A DNA stretch of 64,000 bases. Source: an uncultured bacterium. Its GTDB lineage: Bacteria > Patescibacteriota > Minisyncoccia > Phycocordibacterales > UBA6065. Each line of letters starts with the position of its first letter. Position 1 is the first letter of the stretch. This document shows positions 6,445 through 24,627 of this stretch, in pieces. The stretch lies in assembly GCA_963841935.1 (NCBI GenBank), contig CAWJEP010000001.1:141302-205301 (forward strand). The letters are read 5' to 3'. The notes beneath the pieces are model-generated. The model saw nothing but the letters and a program-made list of their open reading frames with translations. It was not told the DNA's origin and searched no databases. Position numbers and translations under genes: made by a program.

Positions 6445-6864
6445 ATGGCATCGAAAACCGAAAAACGAAAGAATCCAAAGGTTTTCATCGTCGACGCCGA
6501 CAAATTTATCATAAACTTGTACTCTGTCAGGTTTCAGTCGGGGGGCTTTGAGGTTGATTCCTCATTGAGTTCCCTAAAAGCTTTGGGGAAACTGCGTGCC
6601 GGCGCCGTGTATGATATTATGATTTTTGATGTCGGCATGCCCGATATGGACGGCATCGAGTTTTTGCGCGCCGTGCGCGCGGAAAATATTTTGCCGGAAG
6701 CCGCGCTCGTCGTGCTTACCAACGAATCGGCGCCGTCATTAATCGAAGAGGCCAGAAAACTCAAAGTGGACGGCTACATAGTGAAATCCACGAGCATTCC
6801 GTCAGAAGTTTTCGACACGGTGTCGAGAATCCATTTTTCAAAAAAACAAAAACATGCCGCTTGA
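6445..6864 (+). CDS. Stand-alone response-regulator receiver domain protein (PilH/CheY-like)
   Basis: Receiver motifs IVDAD ... IFDVGMPDMDG ... VLT ... K; no output domain; embedded between pilB and pilT. Confidence 0.7.
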   Translation: MASKTEKRKNPKVFIVDADKFIINLYSVRFQSGGFEVDSSLSSLKALGKLRAGAVYDIMIFDVGMPDMDGIEFLRAVRAENILPEAALVVLTNESAPSLIEEARKLKVDGYIVKSTSIPSEVFDTVSRIHFSKKQKHAA

Positions 6865-13837: not shown

Positions 13838-15945
<2,108 letters not shown>

Positions 15946-16045
15946 CGAAGGAATCGCCGCAGCTTTGAGCGACTATTTTTTGGTCTTTCAAAGCTGTAGC
16001 GAAGAGTACAGCATAACTAAAACTGTCAAGACGATTAGTAAAATT

Positions 16046-16783
16046 ATGAGCACAACCACTGCTCCTGTTGTCACCGACGGTGAACTCGCGACGCTTGCTT
16101 CACGGCAAGTTGAGCTTTTCACGCGTTTTAAGAAAGGGGTTTACGCAAATCCCTCCGAAGTGCTGGACGGTATCCAGCTTCTCATCGAAGGCAAACAGCC
16201 CGAGGTCATCCCGACGGTCGTTTCTTCGGACACGAGTTCGGTCATCTCCGACTGGCAGGACTTCTACAAGAAGTTCTTCGGTCTCAATATCGATTTGTCG
16301 GGAGTCAAAATCCCCGAACACGCCCTCGGTTTCGATCGGTTGATTGTGGTCCCGCAAGGTATCACGCTCAATCAAGTTTGGAAGGTGTGTGCAAGGCAGT
16401 TCAACTGCTGGAAATACACCGACTCTGACCTCGATAGTGCTGTTCCCACGAACAACCGAGACCCAAAGAGTGGCGCCTACGCCATCTGGGTCCGCGATGT
16501 TGTCGAAGCTGACAAGGAGATGAAGAATCTCTCGGCGGACGACCTCAAGGAAAGGACAATCAAGGGGGTCACTCTCCTCGAACGTCTACTTCTTGAGCTC
16601 AAGTATTTCTCGGAGACGGGAAAACACTTGGACATTAGCAACTGGACCCTCTGTTCGGGTTCCCGCCATTCGGGCGGCTGCGTGCCCTGTGTGCGCTGGC
16701 TCGACGGCTGGCTCAAGGTCGACTGGTACTATGTCGGCGGTCGGTACGACGACCTTCGTTCGCGTGTAGCAGTTACGCTTTAA
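16046..16783 (+). CDS. DGR target protein 1 (variable region VR1 at C-terminus; CLec/FGE-like tail)
   Basis: Paralog of the 17468 and 50810 genes (shared N-terminal helix pattern). C-terminal 100 nt pairs with the Asn-rich repeat at 17026-17127 with adenine-biased mismatches. Start could be the TTG at 15965. Confidence 0.55.
   Translation: MSTTTAPVVTDGELATLASRQVELFTRFKKGVYANPSEVLDGIQLLIEGKQPEVIPTVVSSDTSSVISDWQDFYKKFFGLNIDLSGVKIPEHALGFDRLIVVPQGITLNQVWKVCARQFNCWKYTDSDLDSAVPTNNRDPKSGAYAIWVRDVVEADKEMKNLSADDLKERTIKGVTLLERLLLELKYFSETGKHLDISNWTLCSGSRHSGGCVPCVRWLDGWLKVDWYYVGGRYDDLRSRVAVTL
16668..16769 (+). other. Candidate variable region VR1
   Basis: Aligned to 17026-17127: 25 mismatches, 21 where the partner has A. 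Confidence 0.55.
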
Positions 16784-16808
16784 GCTTTCTGCTTTTACAC
16801 TTGGTTTC

Positions 16809-16850
16809 GCGGCCTGCAAGTAAAAACTTGCAGGCCGCTTTTGTTTTTCA
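16809..16850 (+). terminator. Rho-independent terminator after target 1
   Basis: GCGGCCTGCAAG-loop-CTTGCAGGCCGC followed by TTTTGTTTTT. Confidence 0.75.
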
Positions 16851-17025
16851 TAAAATTATTCCGGCTATTAAATTGATCCGCCGATGAGGCGGATAACGAT
16901 TTGCCATAAAAAAGAAACTGCCTGCTTCATCTACACAACGCCTCGTTCGGGGTACAAACGCAGAAAATTTTGACGAAAGATTTTCGGTGACACGGAAGGA
17001 TGAAAGCAGTACACGAGGTTCGCGC

Positions 17026-17341
<316 letters not shown>

Positions 17342-17467
17342 GTGAATTGCTACAGCAGAAAGTGCCGAAAAATTTAGACATTTTCTGCTGTGGCAAAGCT
17401 AAATTTGCGAGCCCAACAGCGGACACTGTTCTTATGAACAAGTCCGTCAGATGAAAGGATAACAACC

Positions 17468-18136
17468 ATGAGCGAATTAATGCTCGATGTTGGTCAGGCG
17501 CAGGAACTCAAACTGGCATTCCGTCGCGAAGGCGATTGGACGAACGAGGATATCAAAGCGCTCACCGAGCGCAAAGGTCTCCTCCGGCAGATTCTCGGGA
17601 TTGTCCGCGGCTTTGCGGAAATCACCGTGAAGAAAATCGGACTCTGGCGACGGTTTCTCGTTGGAGGCATCTCCCGCGACGAACTCATCACCAAGCTCGA
17701 CGAGGTTGGTGTTGCGAACACGGGACTGACATTCCGTGTGAGCGATTACGCCAAGGATCTCATGGCGCAGAAGGCATTCGTCATTTCGAAAGAGAAGATG
17801 GAAGCCGACTTCGTCATCGCGACTCCAAAGGATCTCGGTTTCACTGAGAATCCGACGACGGAGGAGCTCTTCAACGAGAAGAACCTCGCGTTCTACGGTC
17901 TCGAACTCTGTCGTGCCGATGATGGTCCGTCGATTCGGCTGTCCTACACGGATCAGCCGAACAGTGAATGGCTTCCGATAGCCATGAAGCCGATTTGCGG
18001 TTCTGACGGCGTACTGGGGCGTGTTCAACCTCGAGCGGGACGGTTCGGGGCTCTGGCTCTACGGCGACTGCTATGCCTATCCGCAGGGTCGGTGGGATGT
18101 CGGCGGTCGGCTTGTCTTCCGCGCTCGCAAGTTCTA
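17468..18136 (+). CDS. DGR target protein 2 (VR2 at C-terminus; 1-nt length difference puts VR out of frame)
   Basis: Good RBS AAAGGA. Body is in one frame to ...ICGSDG; the VR-encoded tail WGVFNLERDGSGLWLYGDCYAYPQGRWDVGGRLVFRARKF* is in the +1 frame, ending in a CLec/FGE-like GxRLVFRAR. Confidence 0.6.
17993..18130 (+). other. Variable region VR2
   Basis: 138 nt vs TR2 137 nt; about 14 substitutions, every one at a TR adenine (A to G or T); last 38 nt identical apart from one A/G. Confidence 0.8.
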
Positions 18137-18188
18137 AGAACTTGGAAATCAGTGCTTTAGCACTTGAAATCTTGGAACTTAGTTCTTC

Positions 18189-18228
18189 GGTCCCTGTTTC
18201 GCTTCGGCGAGGCAGGGACCTTTTGTTA
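18189..18228 (+). terminator. Rho-independent terminator after target 2
   Basis: GGTCCCTG-loop-CAGGGACC followed by TTTTGTT. Confidence 0.7.
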
Positions 18229-18458
18229 TAATAAAAATGGTAGTAGGCGAATCTGAAAAGGATCAAGGTCTTTTTCTGCCGAATCTAGTATCCATGAAGT
18301 CAGAGTGTCTTGGACCAAGGTTTAAGACAGGGCGCTTCATGCAGACACTTCAAAAAATTGAAGATACTTGGTGCAATTTGTTAGGGCATTACGATGCCGA
18401 ATAATATTCAATCCAGAGAAAATTCAATGGATGGTGGTTTAGATGACTTATTGCACAA

Positions 18459-18595
18459 ATTTGCGATTCTGACGGCAACTGGAACGTGTTCAACCTCAAG
18501 CGGGACGATTCGGAGCTCTGGCTCAACGGCAACTACAATGCCAATCCGCAGGATCGGTGGGATGTCGGCGATCGGCTTGTCTTCCGCGCTCGCAA
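18459..18595 (+). other. Template repeat TR2
   Basis: Non-coding, AAC/AAT-rich, immediately upstream of the avd/RT genes; cognate of VR2. Confidence 0.8.
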
Positions 18596-18601
18596 CCCTC
18601 T

Positions 18602-19015
18602 TCATTTCTCTCCGGATTTTTCCGGAGAGTTTTGTTTTACAATTTGTCCAAGCCATCCGCCAAGCATTTTTCCGGCTCCATCTAAAATTTCTGAAAGAGT
18701 CTCGTATTTTTTGTCGCTTATTGATTTTGTTTCCCATAGAACCATGAGAAGTATTTTTATAGTATCTATTTTTCTCGTCGCAAGTTTAATCCACGGTATT
18801 TTTTCTTCTTTCGATAAAAATGTTGCCGTTACCGTTGCTTCTATTGTTTCGATAAACAATTTATCCAGCCGATTTCCAAGCGAATATTTCTGCGTTTTTA
18901 CTAATTTCTCGTGATACTCGTGCCAGAGTTTATATGCTGATTTAATTTTCTCTACCACTGGCAAAATCGCTCGGGGGGGGGGTAGCATTTGAAGAATGGT
19001 TCGGAGCATTTTCAC
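18602..19015 (-). CDS. avd: Avd-like accessory variability determinant (four-helix bundle, 23S rRNA IVS protein family)
   Basis: KYSLGNRLDKLFIETIEAT... and C-terminal SISDKKYETLSEILDGAGKMLGGWL match the IVS/Avd helix pattern. Probable start is the third Met (about 18988). Confidence 0.6.
   Translation of the reverse strand: MKMLRTILQMLPPPRAILPVVEKIKSAYKLWHEYHEKLVKTQKYSLGNRLDKLFIETIEATVTATFLSKEEKIPWIKLATRKIDTIKILLMVLWETKSISDKKYETLSEILDGAGKMLGGWLGQIVKQNSPEKSGEK
18973..18982. repeat. G10 homopolymer (C10 on the avd coding strand)
   Basis: Ten consecutive G; encodes PPP at avd codons 3-6 and lies 14-23 nt upstream of the RT start codon. Confidence 0.9.
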
Positions 19016-19979
19016 TCATACATACGATGATATCATCTCCGTCGAAAATCTTTTAGCTGCGTGGCGTGAATTTATTCGTGGCAAGAAAAATAAAAAAGAC
19101 GTCGAAGAATTTCAGTTTCGTCTTATGGACAATATTCTCGATTTGCATCTAGATTTAAAAAACAAAACATATACTCACGGCATATATCACGCTTTCAATA
19201 TAAATGATCCTAAACCGAGAAATATTCACAAAGCCACAGTACGAGACAGATTGCTCCATCACGCTATACACAGAGTTTCATATCCATTTTTCGACAAAAC
19301 GTTTATCGCTGATTCATATTCGTGCAGATTAAATAAAGGAACTCATAAAGCAATCAAAAGATTTATTTCTTTCAGTCGAAAGGTTTCAAAAAATAACACA
19401 AAAACGTGTTGGATTTTGAAATGCGATATACGGAAATTCTTTGCGAGTATAGACCATAGGATTCTCATTTCGATTTCGAAGAAATATATTCATAACGGAA
19501 ATATTGTCTGGATTATGGAAAACATAATCGGAAGTTTTGAAACAAAAAATGGTGTCGGACTTCCACTCGGTAATCTGACATCACAACTTTTTGTGAATGT
19601 TTATATGAATGAATTCGACCAATTTATGAAACACAGAATCAAAGCGAAATATTACATTCGATATGCCGATGATTTTGTGACATTGTCGCATGACAAAAAA
19701 TATCTTGAAAATCTGATACCAAAAATTTCTAAATTTCTTTCGGAAAAATTAAGATTATCTCTTCATCCTAATAAAGTCTTCATCAAAACTTTAGCCTCGG
19801 GCGTTGACTTCCTTGGTTGGATACATTTTCCAAATCACCGAGTATTACGGACGGCAACGAAAAAGAGAATGTTCAAAAGAATTTCAGAAAATTCGAAAGA
19901 AGAGACGGTTACTTCATATATTGGAATGCTCAAGTACGGAAATGCTTACATTTTAAAAGAACACATAAAAATGCTATAG
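18996..19979 (+). CDS. DGR reverse transcriptase
   Basis: RT motifs DIRKFFASIDH (motif A), GLPLGNLTSQLFVNVYMNEFD (domain 4 with the DGR-specific [IVL]GxxxSQ), YIRYADDFV (YxDD); 327 aa. Confidence 0.85.
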   Translation: MVRSIFTHTYDDIISVENLLAAWREFIRGKKNKKDVEEFQFRLMDNILDLHLDLKNKTYTHGIYHAFNINDPKPRNIHKATVRDRLLHHAIHRVSYPFFDKTFIADSYSCRLNKGTHKAIKRFISFSRKVSKNNTKTCWILKCDIRKFFASIDHRILISISKKYIHNGNIVWIMENIIGSFETKNGVGLPLGNLTSQLFVNVYMNEFDQFMKHRIKAKYYIRYADDFVTLSHDKKYLENLIPKISKFLSEKLRLSLHPNKVFIKTLASGVDFLGWIHFPNHRVLRTATKKRMFKRISENSKEETVTSYIGMLKYGNAYILKEHIKML

Positions 19980-19986
19980 TCTTTTT

Positions 19987-20280
19987 ATGATAACCAAGGC
20001 AGATATAGAGAAATTGGCGAAATTGTCGAGACTAAAGCTTACCGAAGCCGAAAAGGAAAAATACGCCAAAGATATGGATAATATTCTCTCTTACATCGCG
20101 CAGATTGATTCCGTCGCGCCCGCCTCCGCCAAGGCTACGGCGGGTTCGGCAAAAGATTTGCCGAAAAATGTTATGCGCTCGGACGACACTCCGCACGAGT
20201 CGGGAATTTTTACCGACGCGCTTTTGAAACTTTCCCCGAGAAGCGAAAGCGGGCGAGTAAAAGTCAAAAAAATCCTTTAA
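19987..20280 (+). CDS. gatC: Asp/Glu-tRNA amidotransferase subunit C
   Basis: IEKLAKLSRLKLTEAEKEKYAKDMDNILSYIAQID; 97 aa; immediately precedes gatA. Confidence 0.8.
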   Translation: MITKADIEKLAKLSRLKLTEAEKEKYAKDMDNILSYIAQIDSVAPASAKATAGSAKDLPKNVMRSDDTPHESGIFTDALLKLSPRSESGRVKVKKIL

Positions 20281-20281
20281 T

Positions 20282-21694
20282 ATGGCAATCGACCTAAAAA
20301 ATTTGACGATTCGAAAGGCGAACCAAGCTCTTGTGCGCGGAGATTTTACGGCGCGCGAACTTTCGCAAGCGTATCTCGACGAGATAAAAAAGAAAAATCC
20401 GGAAATAAACGCTTACCTTGAAATCTACGACGATGTACTCAAACAAGCCGACGAAGCGCAGAAATTCGTAGGAAAAAATTTTCTCGCCGGCATCCCGCTC
20501 GCCATAAAAGACAATATTTTGATAAAGGGAAAACACGCGCAATCGGCGTCGAAGATTCTCGACGGCTATGTCGCGCCGTATGACGCTACCGCTATAGAAA
20601 AATTGAAAAAAGAACATGTGGTGTTCATCGGCCGAGCCAATATGGACGAATTCGCCATGGGCGGTTCGACCGAAAATAGCGCTTTTGGTGTTACGAAAAA
20701 TCCTCACGATGTCTCGCGCGTCGCCGGCGGCTCGTCAGGCGGAAGCGCGGCAGCGGTCGCGATGGACGGAGCTCTCGGCGCTCTCGGTTCCGACACCGGC
20801 GGCTCGGTGAGGCAACCGGCGAGTTTCTGCGGAGTCGTGGGACTAAAACCCACTTATGGCTCCGTCTCGCGCCACGGACTTATGGCGATGGGATCTTCGC
20901 TCGATGTCATCGGACCTATCGGAAAGACGGTCGATGATGTTGAAATACTTTTCGACACCATAAAGGGCAAAGACAAATTCGATTCGACCTCCATCGATGT
21001 TTCGGAAAAAAATTTAAAACAGCCGAAGAAAATCGGCGTGCCAAAAGGATTGGTCAATCAAGGCGGAATAGATGCGGCCGTTATCAAATCTTTCAACGAG
21101 GCACTTGAGAAATTCAAATCGGAAGGCTTTGAAATAGTTGAAGTCGATATGCCGAACTTAAAATATGCTCTCGCGGTTTATTATGTTGTGATGCCGGCGG
21201 AAGTTTCTACAAACCTCGCTAGATTCGACGGAGTGAAATACGGACTTCATAAAGACGGGGAGAATTCCATAGACGATTATTTTGAGACGAGGGCGGCGGG
21301 CTTCGGCCCCGAAGCCCGCCGCCGTATCATGCTCGGCGCCTATGTTCTTTCCTCAGGCTATTACGATGCCTATTACGGCAAAGCCACGGCCGTGCGCGAG
21401 CTTATAAAAAAAGATTTCGCCAAAGCTTTCGAAAAAGTCGACCTTATCGCCACTCCCACCGCGCCGGGAACGGCTTTCAAAATCGGCGAAAAAACTTCCG
21501 ACCCGGTCGCCATGTATCTCGAAGATATTTTTACCGTCACTGCCAATCTCGCCGGCGTGCCGTCTATATCGCTTCCGTTCGGCGAAAAAATGGAAGGCGG
21601 CAAGAAACTGCCGATAGGTATTCAGCTCACGGCTCGGCACGCCGATGAAGGTGCGCTTTTTTCCGCGGGCAAGAAACTTTTAGGAGAGAAATAA
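20282..21694 (+). CDS. gatA: Asp/Glu-tRNA amidotransferase subunit A
   Basis: Amidase signature GGSSGGSAAAVA, Ser-cisSer-Lys triad context, 470 aa. Confidence 0.85.
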   Translation: MAIDLKNLTIRKANQALVRGDFTARELSQAYLDEIKKKNPEINAYLEIYDDVLKQADEAQKFVGKNFLAGIPLAIKDNILIKGKHAQSASKILDGYVAPYDATAIEKLKKEHVVFIGRANMDEFAMGGSTENSAFGVTKNPHDVSRVAGGSSGGSAAAVAMDGALGALGSDTGGSVRQPASFCGVVGLKPTYGSVSRHGLMAMGSSLDVIGPIGKTVDDVEILFDTIKGKDKFDSTSIDVSEKNLKQPKKIGVPKGLVNQGGIDAAVIKSFNEALEKFKSEGFEIVEVDMPNLKYALAVYYVVMPAEVSTNLARFDGVKYGLHKDGENSIDDYFETRAAGFGPEARRRIMLGAYVLSSGYYDAYYGKATAVRELIKKDFAKAFEKVDLIATPTAPGTAFKIGEKTSDPVAMYLEDIFTVTANLAGVPSISLPFGEKMEGGKKLPIGIQLTARHADEGALFSAGKKLLGEK

Positions 21695-21713
21695 TGGTGT
21701 AGAATAGACGAGT

Positions 21714-22286
21714 ATGGTCAATTTTCTCAATGTAGAATATTTATTTCTTTGGATATATGACGTGGCAAAATCGTTTGACCCCGCCGCTATCATCAATTGG
21801 ATTACCGAATATGTTTTGATGCCGATTCGCCCTTATGCCGCGGCCATCACCGTCCTAATGATTGTCTGGATTGTATATTCGACGATTCGCATCGGCCAGA
21901 TTACGGAAGAAGAACACGAGCTTTACGGCGTTCCGAAAAAAGATACCGCGCCGTCCGCGGCCCAAACGGACCTTTCGGAAAAATGGGCCGAGGTGGAAAA
22001 AAATATAAACTCCAAAAATCCTTCGGACTGGCGTGTTGCCATCGTCGACGCCGATATCATGCTCGGCACCATTCTCGCTCGCCACGGATACCCCGGAGAG
22101 ACGATAGGTGATCAACTGAAAGCTGTGGACAAAGACGACATGCTCACGCTTCAAGACGCTTGGGCCGCGCATGCCGTGCGAAACAACATTGCTCACGGCG
22201 GCACGGATTTTCAAATAAACGAGCGCGAAGCCAAAGCCACTATAGCTCTATACAAAAAAGTTTTTCAGGAGTTTTATCATATTTAG
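21714..22286 (+). CDS. Hypothetical membrane protein
   Basis: Two N-terminal TM helices; no recognised motif. Confidence 0.4.
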   Translation: MVNFLNVEYLFLWIYDVAKSFDPAAIINWITEYVLMPIRPYAAAITVLMIVWIVYSTIRIGQITEEEHELYGVPKKDTAPSAAQTDLSEKWAEVEKNINSKNPSDWRVAIVDADIMLGTILARHGYPGETIGDQLKAVDKDDMLTLQDAWAAHAVRNNIAHGGTDFQINEREAKATIALYKKVFQEFYHI

Positions 22287-22332
22287 CGAGCGGTTTGCCG
22301 TAGGTATTTTTTTGCGGTATAGTACGCTTCAT

Positions 22333-22403
22333 AGCGGGGTTGAGTAACGGTAGCTCGTCAGGCTCATAACCTGAAGGCCTTGGTTCGAATCCGAGCCCCG
22401 CAA
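22333..22403 (+). tRNA. Initiator tRNA-fMet (CAU)
   Basis: Cloverleaf nearly identical to E. coli tRNA-fMet (D-arm GAGU/GCUC, anticodon stem UCAGG-CUCAUAA-CCUGA); 1:72 unpaired (A:A). Confidence 0.8.
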
Positions 22404-22418
22404 TAATTTTTCTATTTG

Positions 22419-22491
22419 TGTCGGGGGTGGGGATCGAACCCACGACCCCAGGCTTATGAGTCCTGTGCTCTACCGACTGAGCTACCCCGAC
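22419..22491 (-). tRNA. tRNA-Met(CAU), elongator or lysidine-type Ile2
   Basis: GUCGGGG acceptor, CAU anticodon in CUCAUAA loop, TTCGATC T-loop. Confidence 0.75.
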
Positions 22492-22493
22492 AG

Positions 22494-22566
22494 AGCCACC
22501 TCCCAGATTTGCACTGGGGACCTCCGCTTTACGAAAGCGTTGCTCTACTAGCTGAGCTAAGGTGGC
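22494..22566 (-). tRNA. tRNA-Thr(CGU)
   Basis: Acceptor GCCACCT/AGGTGGC, anticodon loop TTCGTAA; T-loop reads TGCAAAT (G at position 55). Confidence 0.75.
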
Positions 22567-22592
22567 ACGTTTGTTTTTTAAAGAACTAGCGG

Positions 22593-22665
22593 AGCCGACG
22601 TCCGGGATCGAACCGGAGACCTCGTCATTACCAATGACGTGCTCTACCAACTGAGCTACATCGGC
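22593..22665 (-). tRNA. tRNA-Thr(GGU)
   Basis: Acceptor GCCGATG, anticodon loop TTGGTAA, canonical TTCGATC T-loop. Confidence 0.8.
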
Positions 22666-22691
22666 TTGTATTTTTAATTTTTTTCGACCTG

Positions 22692-22765
22692 CGCGCCCGG
22701 CCGGATTCGCACCGGTGACCTCTCCCGTGACAGGGGAGCGCTCTAACTAGCTGAGCTACGGGCGC
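22692..22765 (-). tRNA. tRNA-Asp(GUC)
   Basis: Acceptor GCGCCCG/CGGGCGC, anticodon loop CTGTCAC, discriminator G; T-loop TGCGAAT (G55). Confidence 0.75.
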
Positions 22766-22855
22766 ATACGAATTTGTCACTCGTCAAGAAAATGTAACAA
22801 AATAAAGGTCTTTCGGCAATCTGCCTCGTCGGCAGACGGGTGCTATACTTTTTTA

Positions 22856-23725
22856 ATGAACAAAAAAGAGAAGCGAACATCCGAACTCGAAACTGCAATG
22901 TCAGAAGCGGATTTTTGGAATGATAAAGAAAAAGCCCAGACCATTCTCAAAGAACATATAGCTCTTAAGCAAGAAATCGCCGAAGCGGCGAAATTCGAAA
23001 AAGGCAACGCCATTGTCACGATTTTTTCCGGCGCCGGAGGCGACGACGCCGAGGATTTCTCCAGAATGCTTCTAGAAATGTATATGAAATACAGCGCGAA
23101 GCGGGGTTGGGGCATTTCTTTCATTCACGAAAACAAAAATGACACGGGCGGATATCGCAACGTGACTTTCGAACTCGAAGGCAAAGGCGCTTACGGTATT
23201 TTGAAGAATGAATCCGGTGTTCATCGTCTCGTGCGCATTTCGCCTTTCAACGCCGACAAGAAACGCCACACATCTTTTTCTCTCGTCGAGGTTTTGCCGA
23301 AGTTCGAGAAATCTGTAAATACGCCGATTCCGTCTGAAGAAATTAAAATAGAATTTGCCAAAGCTGGCGGTCCAGGCGGACAAAACGTAAACAAAAGGGA
23401 GACCGCCGTGCGACTCATCCACATTCCGACGAAGATCTCCGTGCATGTTTCAAGCGAACGCAGTCAGGCGCAAAACAGGGAAAAGGCCATGGAAATCCTA
23501 CAAGCGAAACTTTACAAAATGCGTGAGGACGAAAAATTGGCGAAAGAGAGGGGTATGCAAATTTCCAAAACGACGGACATAGAATGGGGCAACCAAATCC
23601 GTTCATATGTCCTTCATCCATACAAAATGGTCAAAGATCACAGGACAGACGCCGAAACGGCTCAAGTGGATAAGGTCCTTGGCGGCGACATAGACATTTT
23701 TATAGAAGCCGAAAAGAATTTGTAA
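22856..23725 (+). CDS. prfB: Peptide chain release factor 2 (compact, no programmed frameshift site)
   Basis: SPF tripeptide (RISPFNADKK) and GGQ (AGGPGGQNVNK); aligns to E. coli RF2 from about residue 30; no upstream CUU-UGA-C element. Confidence 0.8.
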   Translation: MNKKEKRTSELETAMSEADFWNDKEKAQTILKEHIALKQEIAEAAKFEKGNAIVTIFSGAGGDDAEDFSRMLLEMYMKYSAKRGWGISFIHENKNDTGGYRNVTFELEGKGAYGILKNESGVHRLVRISPFNADKKRHTSFSLVEVLPKFEKSVNTPIPSEEIKIEFAKAGGPGGQNVNKRETAVRLIHIPTKISVHVSSERSQAQNREKAMEILQAKLYKMREDEKLAKERGMQISKTTDIEWGNQIRSYVLHPYKMVKDHRTDAETAQVDKVLGGDIDIFIEAEKNL

Positions 23726-23946
23726 ATTAATATTCATTGGAGTAGAGTGCGTTTAAATGAATACCAGGATACTGACTTTCCTACGCTCTTTGGGTCACGT
23801 AAACAGGAATGTAAAAGACAACTGCGTCATTTACGCTTTGAATACCAGGAGGTTTTCTTTGGTACTCTATGTCTTTCGCTTTCGAAAGGGACTCAAGTGA
23901 GTCTCTTTTTTTATGGGTGATAAGTGGGATATAATGAATCGACGTT

Positions 23947-24627
23947 ATGATTAAATTCGACAAGGTTTCCAAGATCTACGGCGACGACAGCGTCGCTCTC
24001 GACGAAGTCACGCTTACCATAAAGCCCAAAGAATTCGTCTCCGTCGTGGGACACAGCGGCGCGGGCAAGACGACGCTTGTCAAAATGATTCTGGCGGAAG
24101 AAAAGCCCTCGCGCGGCTCCGTTTTTTTCGAATCGCAAGACGTTCACGCCATGAAGAAGCGCGATATTCCGAAATACCGCCGCCGCATAGGGACGGTCTT
24201 TCAGGATTTCCGCCTGATTCCGAACAAGACGGTTTTTGAAAACATCGCTTTTGCTATGGAGGCGGCGGAGCGTCCGGATGAAGACATCGAGGCCGATGTG
24301 CCGCACGTTCTCGAACTTGTCGATTTGATGCCGAAAATCTGGAGTTTTCCATCCGAACTTTCCGGCGGCGAGGCCCAACGTGTGGCAATCGCCCGCGCCA
24401 TCGTCAATCAGCCCGATGTCATCATCGCGGATGAGCCGACGGGAAACCTCGACCCGATAAACACCAACGACATCATTCAGATTTTGAAAAAAATAAACGA
24501 CCTTGGTACGACCGTCATTCTCACCACGCACAATAGGGGCGTCATTGACTCCGTTGGTGGTCGCGTCATTACCATGGACAAAGGCAAAATCATTCGCGAC
24601 GACAAGCAGGGAATGTATTCCCTCTAA
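23947..24627 (+). CDS. ftsE: Cell-division ABC ATPase FtsE
   Basis: Walker A GHSGAGKTT, signature [14 protein letters not shown], Walker [12 protein letters not shown]. Confidence 0.85.
   Translation: MIKFDKVSKIYGDDSVALDEVTLTIKPKEFVSVVGHSGAGKTTLVKMILAEEKPSRGSVFFESQDVHAMKKRDIPKYRRRIGTVFQDFRLIPNKTVFENIAFAMEAAERPDEDIEADVPHVLELVDLMPKIWSFPSELSGGEAQRVAIARAIVNQPDVIIADEPTGNLDPINTNDIIQILKKINDLGTTVILTTHNRGVIDSVGGRVITMDKGKIIRDDKQGMYSL

Follow-up and report, generated by a model that had tools for sequence, protein, structure and literature searches.

In a 64,000-nucleotide stretch of DNA from an uncultured Patescibacteriota bacterium of the UBA6065 lineage (assembly GCA_963841935.1, contig CAWJEP010000001.1, positions 141,302 to 205,301; hereafter the window), a diversity-generating retroelement (DGR) is present, whose reverse transcriptase (RT) gene and avd gene overlap head to head. 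A run of ten G residues lies at this junction and is the subject of the present analysis. The gene order is template repeat 2 (TR2, 18478-18595, plus strand), avd (19019-18602, minus strand) and RT (18996-19979, plus strand). The RT consists of 327 amino acids, and its first eight codons form the overlap with avd. It matches the Pfam family RVT_1 (E=1.8e-22), and its closest solved relative is bRT of the Bordetella phage (8ub7_A, E=4e-45, residues 10-299), with retron and group II RTs far behind (E about 1e-21). The Avd body is encoded at 18602-18988 on the minus strand and represents a four-helix bundle, which begins at approximately residue 19 of a 137-codon open frame. Here, the Pfam family bAvd was found with E=2.8e-9, but the score of 37.9 bits stays below the 40-bit cut-off. 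A search of the Avd sequence profile against the PDB sequences gave no match; the fold search found Bordetella phage Avd (4dwl) as the best match to the AlphaFold2 model (TM 0.89, rmsd 1.5). This model has a pLDDT of 84.7 and displays four helices within residues 19-128.

Two pairs of template and variable repeats (VR) are found on the plus strand. TR2 is 90% identical to VR2 (18013-18130), which forms the 3' end of target gene 2 (open reading frame (ORF) 17468-18160), and all 12 of their 12 mismatches are located at TR adenines. The second pair consists of TR1 (17017-17137) and VR1 (16658-16778) at the 3' end of target gene 1 (ORF 15965-16783); they are 76% identical and 22 of the 29 mismatches fall on TR adenines. 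With respect to the RT, the TR/VR pairs, Avd and the gene order, the element is a DGR of the known B3 architecture TR-(avd)-RT. This order accounts for 90% of one survey's set of DGRs from the candidate phyla radiation (PMC5758913). The homologs of the element derive from metagenome-assembled genomes of Patescibacteria.

The G10 run (ctcGGGGGGGGGGtagcat) occupies positions 18973-18982 of the plus strand and is read as C10 on the minus strand, where this variable simple-sequence repeat covers avd codons 13-16 if the count begins at the conserved ATG described below. In its longer plus-strand context (aatcgctcGGGGGGGGGGtagcatttgaagaATGgtt), which spans the run and the RT ATG at 18996, it lies at -23 to -14 relative to this ATG with a gap of 13 nt between both. 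An earlier note on this DNA had placed the run at the same positions, 14-23 nt 5' of the RT ATG, and all of its coordinates are correct. No other G or C run in the window reaches seven residues, the runners-up being one G6 (at 6540) and one C6. By chance, approximately 0.07 runs of at least ten G or C would be expected per 64 kb, as estimated from the base composition. G/C runs of about 7-8 residues or more, or several tetranucleotide units, are long enough to be unstable, and the tract with its ten G residues falls into this range.

To place the tract within avd, the start codon of the gene has to be known. For the comparison, 80 loci from species-representative genomes and 80 loci from metagenomes were used as relatives. 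The earlier note had read the minus-strand frame from the third Met, the ATG at 18988, as M-L-P-P-P-R with the run extending from codon 3 to the first base of codon 6. This reading is correct as such, yet the ATG at 18988 is not conserved and is in frame only at G10; an in-frame ATG is present in 12 of 78 out-of-frame relatives. Judged from the codon usage of the opposite strand, the conserved avd start is instead an ATG at 19019-19017, which lies opposite RT codon 8 (CAT, His) and is complementary to it. This RT codon encodes His in 129 of 156 loci, and in 127 of these 129 the codon CAT is used, in comparison to 58.8% of the His codons in the RT body (P=7e-27). Furthermore, the Leu and Ser codons that would create antisense stops (TTA, CTA, TCA) are absent from RT codons 1-8 (0/118), whereas they make up 22.5% in the RT body (P=8e-14). 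Wherever the conserved ATG is present, no stop interrupts the frame between it and the tract. The CAT bias, the avoidance of antisense stops and the open frame together indicate that the overlap is translated in the direction of avd and that this frame is kept by selection. The overlap of avd and RT comprises 24 nt or eight codons, codon against codon, and the conserved ATG lies 37 nt upstream of the tract. A start of avd downstream of the tract, which the earlier note had named as the case against a switch, is thus not what the conservation points to. The gene call on a G9 contig (L082), the 138-aa protein P0122, begins at the conserved ATG as well. With this start codon, as deduced from sequence, the repeat is located inside the ORF and 3' of the start, and its unit length is not divisible by three.

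The consequence for the reading frame is evident. At G10, the frame from the conserved ATG reads MSENAPNHSSNATPPPSDFASGREN followed by a stop (18942-19019, minus strand), and this 25-residue product would correspond to an Avd-OFF state. At G9, the predicted product is a 138-aa Avd (P0122, MSENAPNHSSNATPPRAILPVVEK...). A run of G9 or G12 therefore joins the conserved ATG to the Avd body in one frame, which G10 does not. The note had expected that a 9-mer would break avd; instead, G9 restores the frame from the conserved ATG. Among the relatives with a run of at least seven C on the avd strand (n=100), 22 are in frame, 48 would need one base fewer and 30 one base more, and the in-frame ones are almost all C9 or C10. 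Repeat-free relatives are in frame in five of six cases versus the 22 of 100 with the run (Fisher P=0.004), and of the distinct loci carrying tetranucleotide repeats three of five are in frame. In ten out-of-frame loci, none of the possible start codons ATG, GTG and TTG occurs in the Avd frame as far as residue 24. Measured against the conserved start, most of these DGRs would be Avd-OFF in their assembled consensus, and the repeat-free ones would be locked ON.

The tract is a common feature of this family. In 78 of the 80 genome relatives avd and RT are divergent, and a G/C run of 6-12 residues is found at the same position in approximately 86% of about 146 distinct related junctions. The run lengths of 70 genome loci are G6 (2), G7 (7), G8 (10), G9 (20), G10 (24), G11 (6) and G12 (1), and the distance from the run to the RT ATG is 13 nt in 31 of these 70. 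The conserved avd start is present in 117 distinct junctions, of which 100 carry at least C7, six carry C6, five carry tetranucleotide repeats and six are repeat-free. In the 29 loci with another start position the run is present in most cases. Away from the junction such runs are rare, as the 445 kb of the first 80 related loci contain only three further G/C runs of at least seven residues. Runs that lie near related DGRs but off the junction were seen at L017:5380 (C8), L080:496 (G8), L221:2786 (C9) and L001:858 (C7); these could be further repeat-controlled genes. In 56 distant phage Avd genes (23-37% identity) no such run was found near the start.

The tetranucleotide repeats that replace the run in five loci have 7-13 units and include (CAAC)7, (CAAT)7, (GTCA)13, (GCCA)10 and (GCCA)11. 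Within a single subclade whose N-termini are related (ML.xN..H), C-runs, four different tetranucleotide units and interrupted versions, e.g., CCG CCG CCG, are all found. The presence of different repeat types at the same site points to selection on mutability and not on the peptide or a G-specific DNA signal. In one relative (L054) a short (GA)n/(CT)n dinucleotide repeat is found in place of the G-run.

The length of the repeat differs between near-identical sequences, the group of the window included. Other assemblies of the window's cassette were traced by identical-protein look-ups and cluster members, and four assemblies with identical flanks are available, of which the window and L081 have G10 and L082 and L083 have G9. 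A scan of JGI metagenomes with the exact flanks for other tract lengths of this cassette gave no match. Of 11 groups with 93-100% identical 120-nt flanks, six vary in tract length. These variable groups include L017 (C9), L103 (C8) and L123 (C10); L048 (C7) and L132 (C9); L094 and L096 (both C10) with L095 (C8); L105 (C9) and L130 (C8); as well as L067 and L070 (both C9) with L080 (C8). Two sister loci carry (GCCA)10 and (GCCA)11, respectively. Judged from these comparisons, the tract mutates much faster than its flanks. The earlier note had proposed a slippage-prone contingency tract whose change in length shifts the avd frame, and the comparison supports this in part: the tract is a length-variable repeat inside the avd frame, it is neither invariant nor absent among the homologous loci, and the relatives differ in frame as a consequence of its length.

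Since the tract lies within the first codons of avd, the way in which avd is expressed becomes relevant. Seven nucleotides 5' of the avd ATG, inside RT codons 11-14, an extended -10-like element is present (TGATATCAT, 19027-19035, minus strand). A consensus of 117 junctions displays TGATATcnT at -16 to -8 upstream of avd. RT codons 11-14 are conserved at the nucleotide and not the amino-acid level, where codon 11 is always NAN and codon 12 NAT. At the synonymous sites a bias is visible as well, with RT Ile13 encoded by ATC in 128 of 156 loci and Ile14 preferring ATT. The element TGATATCAT is therefore a putative avd promoter for a leaderless mRNA. The same geometry occurs elsewhere in the window. 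The motif TGnTAnnnT followed by 6-7 nt and an ATG was found at 10 of 70 window ORFs at offsets -13/-12, versus approximately 1.6 per other offset, and motifs resembling a Shine-Dalgarno (SD) sequence are present at only 5 of 52 long window ORFs. Leaderless mRNAs seem to be common in this organism. Examples of genes with the extended -10-like motif are those at 6445 (plus), 19987 (gatC, plus), 21714 (plus), 22856 (plus), 33381 (minus) and 41215 (minus). Due to the extended -10 geometry and the rarity of SD motifs, the avd and RT mRNAs are probably leaderless, with their 5' ends overlapping by 24 nt. Folding of the avd 5' region was no better than that of shuffled sequences (z=-0.7).

Taken together, we consider it fairly likely that the tract is a slipped-strand contingency switch acting on Avd and hence on retrohoming. 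Here, avd would be translated from the ATG at 19019, with which a leaderless mRNA driven from TGATATCAT within RT codons 11-14 probably begins, and twelve codons further the ribosome would meet the C-run. Slipped-strand mispairing during replication would alter the run by at least one base and thereby bring the Avd bundle in or out of frame with the ATG. In the window (G10) the frame would end after 25 residues and Avd would be OFF, and in the two other assemblies of the cassette with G9 the 138-aa Avd would be produced. Within the population, the tract would thus decide whether cDNA is made and mutagenic retrohoming takes place, and it would do so heritably yet reversibly. For the Bordetella phage, bRT has been reported to display no reverse transcriptase activity without Avd (PMC6182149). 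By analogy, the Avd-OFF state should result in no cDNA and no retrohoming.

Several points weigh against a switch on Avd. Some of the assemblies may be long-read (the group of the window contains contig_34136), and homopolymer lengths are error-prone there. The state with one C too many is the commonest one (48/100) instead of a random third (chi-square P=0.005), which could point to recoding. Because the ATG at 18988 is in frame at G10, the OFF state of the window may be leaky. At codon 18 of avd, TTG is used in 49% of the loci in comparison to 17% of the Leu codons in the Avd body, and a tract-independent internal start of Avd may be present. Finally, a scan for the two-hexamer sigma-70 consensus calls no promoter at the junction.

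The first of these points leads to the assumption that no switching occurs at all, i.e., that the run is kept for a fixed function, either Pro-Pro-Pro in Avd or a G-rich DNA or RNA signal for the RT, and that the length differences are sequencing or assembly errors. Pro-Pro(-Pro) is indeed present in all translated homologs, one tract-less clade retains PPP as CCG CCG CCG, and homopolymers are known to be error-prone in long-read assemblies. However, a C-run yields Pro in every frame, so that the apparent motif follows from the DNA, and the tetranucleotide repeats encode other residues. Differences of 2 nt, or of a single 4-nt unit, occur with identical flanks, and many of the contigs stem from Illumina-style assemblies. 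Furthermore, only 22% of the loci are in frame, which is far too few if the non-frame states were errors. A fixed function of the run together with erroneous lengths is therefore highly improbable. The conserved PP motif of the protein alignments was also considered as a peptide signal in its own right and was set aside, since the flanking 'TA' frame varies and the tetranucleotide loci code for other residues; with Pro in all frames, the motif is uninformative. In the Avd model, the tract encodes a low-confidence or disordered N-terminal tail ahead of the first helix (residue 19), which suggests that insertions of Pro would be tolerated.

The excess of loci with one C too many could be explained if the tract acted by non-heritable recoding, through slippage of the RNA polymerase or a +1 frameshift of tRNA-Pro on CCC-C. 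This would result in a low constitutive level of Avd, and the tract would be an attenuator rather than a switch. C runs are known shift-prone sites for tRNA-Pro, and the state that requires the removal of one nucleotide is the over-represented one. A programmed frameshift would be recognized by a fixed slippery site and a conserved out-of-frame arrangement, whereas here both length and frame vary: all three frame states occur, even with identical flanks. The tract-less loci are in frame, and the tetranucleotide repeats of five loci would not support single-base slippage of the ribosome. In addition, no stimulatory stop or rare codon follows the run in the sequence. Recoding therefore appears to be unlikely.

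The enrichment of TTG at codon 18 would fit to a start of Avd 3' of the tract, either at Leu18 (TTG) or at Val20 (GTG). In this case, the ATG at 19019 would belong to a short upstream ORF, and the tract would modulate the coupling or be neutral for Avd. In line with this, some database homologs are called from the Leu18/Val20 region, and the Pfam and the structural domain begin at approximately residues 18-19. Nevertheless, codon 18 is not TTG in half of the loci, GTG is found at codon 20 in only a quarter, and the ten out-of-frame loci mentioned above offer no start codon in the Avd frame up to residue 24. In five of the six tract-less loci, the ATG and the Avd body share one frame, which would not be needed if the ATG belonged to a separate upstream ORF. 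We regard a downstream start as distinctly improbable. The nucleotide motif TTTTGCCA, which covers Avd codons 17-20 (18948-18965, minus strand), is kept beyond the amino-acid need; it could serve as an internal start or, on the opposite strand, as a -35-like element of the RT promoter.

This motif leads to the RT, for which the hexamer TAGCAT (18983-18988, plus strand) is a putative promoter element. It resembles a -10 element, abuts the tract and lies 7 nt 5' of the RT ATG. In the junctions upstream of RT, T at -13 is present in 58, A at -12 in 51 and T at -8 in 52 of 72 cases. The earlier note had assigned the tract to the ribosome-binding region of the RT. This is unlikely, as a -10-like TAGCAT 7 nt before the ATG suits a leaderless promoter. 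The G-run as SD sequence of the RT was set aside because of its 13-nt spacing and the SD-like motifs at only 5 of 52 long ORFs. If the RT mRNA is leaderless, the tract lies outside of it, and any effect on the RT would occur via promoter geometry, i.e., on transcription. An extra effect of the tract on the RT promoter is possible.

Such an effect would be exerted if the length of the tract sets the spacing between the -10 TAGCAT and an upstream -35-like TGGCAA and thereby tunes RT transcription, alone or alongside the frame switch. The candidate TGGCAA is the antisense of Avd Leu18-Pro19. In this case a single tract would act on both genes, as they face each other head to head. In favour of this, the tract is immediately followed by the -10-like hexamer, which lies 7 nt 5' of the ATG, its geometry is enriched at other genes of the window, the nucleotides of the motif TTTTGCCA, read as TGGCAAAA on the RT strand, are kept more strictly than the amino acids demand, and the computed modal spacer is 18 nt. 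On the other side, TGGCAA matches at 3 of 6 positions, the two-hexamer scan is without a promoter here, and the implied spacer ranges from approximately 15 to 20 nt among the relatives. The run places a G at the extended -10 position, and such promoters are established to need no -35 element. The tract-less and the tetranucleotide loci still have RT genes. A role of the tract as a promoter spacer is therefore conceivable although doubtful.

Repeats within promoter spacers are well known, for example the poly-G/C tracts of porA and opc in N. meningitidis, (TA)n between hifA and hifB in H. influenzae and the poly-C tract of the fim genes in Bordetella. The similarity lies in a repeat between promoter elements, and in the case of hif in its position between divergent genes, where one tract acts on both. 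In contrast, only a -10-like element is evident here, a -35 element is doubtful and the tract codes for part of the opposite gene.

Returning to the frame switch on Avd, the closest parallels are the translational phase variation systems of Neisseria, Haemophilus and Campylobacter. In these systems (PMC3786947, PMC2651432, PMC5084427), a G/C run of approximately 8-11 residues or a tetranucleotide repeat lies a few codons past the start, as in the poly-G tracts of hmbR and hpuA and the tetranucleotide repeats of lic and mod in H. influenzae. A change in length shifts the frame, near-identical strains vary, and mixed repeat types or interrupted 'locked' versions exist; the locus presented here shares these features. 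It differs in its host, an uncultured environmental lineage of the Patescibacteria, and in the gene that is switched, a cofactor of a DGR and not a surface or restriction-modification gene. Furthermore, the repeat is placed inside a head-to-head gene overlap.

Compared to the DGR of the Bordetella phage BPP-1 (avd-TR-brt), the element has in common an RT homologous to bRT, a fold similar to bAvd and adenine-specific differences between TR and VR. In BPP-1, however, avd is co-directional with brt and a repeat is not present. Phase-variable global regulators and mutators, such as phasevarions and the repeat-mediated switching of mismatch-repair genes, also resemble the proposed system, as a stochastic repeat switch there controls a system with population-wide effects on variation. 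Those systems act genome-wide, whereas the tract described here would gate a hypermutator aimed at two specific target genes. In the full-text literature on DGRs or Avd combined with repeat-mediated phase variation, no description of a repeat switch in a DGR was found, and a term search of the architectural survey gave no mention of homopolymer or promoter features (PMC5758913). Both the architecture of DGRs and phase variation through repeats are well established by themselves.

The DGR itself has been recently active, as judged from the divergence of VR2 against a near-identical core. Between the window and L083, the core (17421-20030) displays approximately 16 differences in VR2 and three other sites besides the tract. 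Outside of VR2 and the tract this core is about 99.9% identical to L083, and the flanking genes gatA and ligA reach just 82-84%. The high identity of the core versus the low identity of the flanks suggests a recent transfer of the cassette or a sweep between related Patescibacteria. Directly after TR2, a terminator-like hairpin followed by TTTTGTTTTA is present (18608-18629, plus strand), which suggests that the TR2 RNA is a transcript separate from the RT mRNA. An Rfam scan of 14000-24000 gave no family besides tRNAs. A cluster of five tRNAs lies at 22333-22765, four on the minus and one on the plus strand.

A direct repeat of 201 nt with 95% identity is found at 15742-15942 and 17139-17339, the first copy of which takes in the 3' end of ligA. 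Both copies bracket an extra module (15943-17138), which consists of target gene 1 and TR1. Since L083 has a single target between ligA and avd, this module was gained or lost by recombination at the 201-nt repeat. Public gene calls of the locus disagree, with Avd called as 118, 128, 135 or 138 aa and the RT as 284 or 327 aa (P0001, P0121, P0123, P0126). Gene callers are led astray by the overlap of the two genes and by the state of the tract, which explains the inconsistent N-termini of Avd and RT in these genomes.

Mutagenic retrohoming that proceeds unchecked is expected to carry a cost. The tract is widespread in a clade with a large share of the known DGRs, the candidate phyla radiation or Patescibacteria, and metagenomic reads allow it to be scored directly. 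For roughly three quarters of these loci, a prediction of DGR activity that considers gene content alone may be wrong, and a heterologous reconstitution should use an in-frame tract length.

In its widest form, the interpretation would be that one repeat in the 24-nt overlap of two leaderless genes toggles the whole hypermutation system, via the frame of Avd as well as RT transcription through promoter geometry. Repeat types would have been gained repeatedly across the Patescibacteria, and most lineages would be OFF and one deletion away from ON. This would reflect selection for second-order evolvability, i.e., bet-hedging over when to hypermutate. We put this forward tentatively, as a speculation that may well turn out to be too broad. 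If a heritable, reversible and stochastic switch on an obligatory cofactor of the RT is indeed present, a minority of the population would diversify its surface or binding proteins and the majority would remain stable. A contingency locus would then be stacked on targeted hypermutation, combining two mutational strategies in these bacteria.

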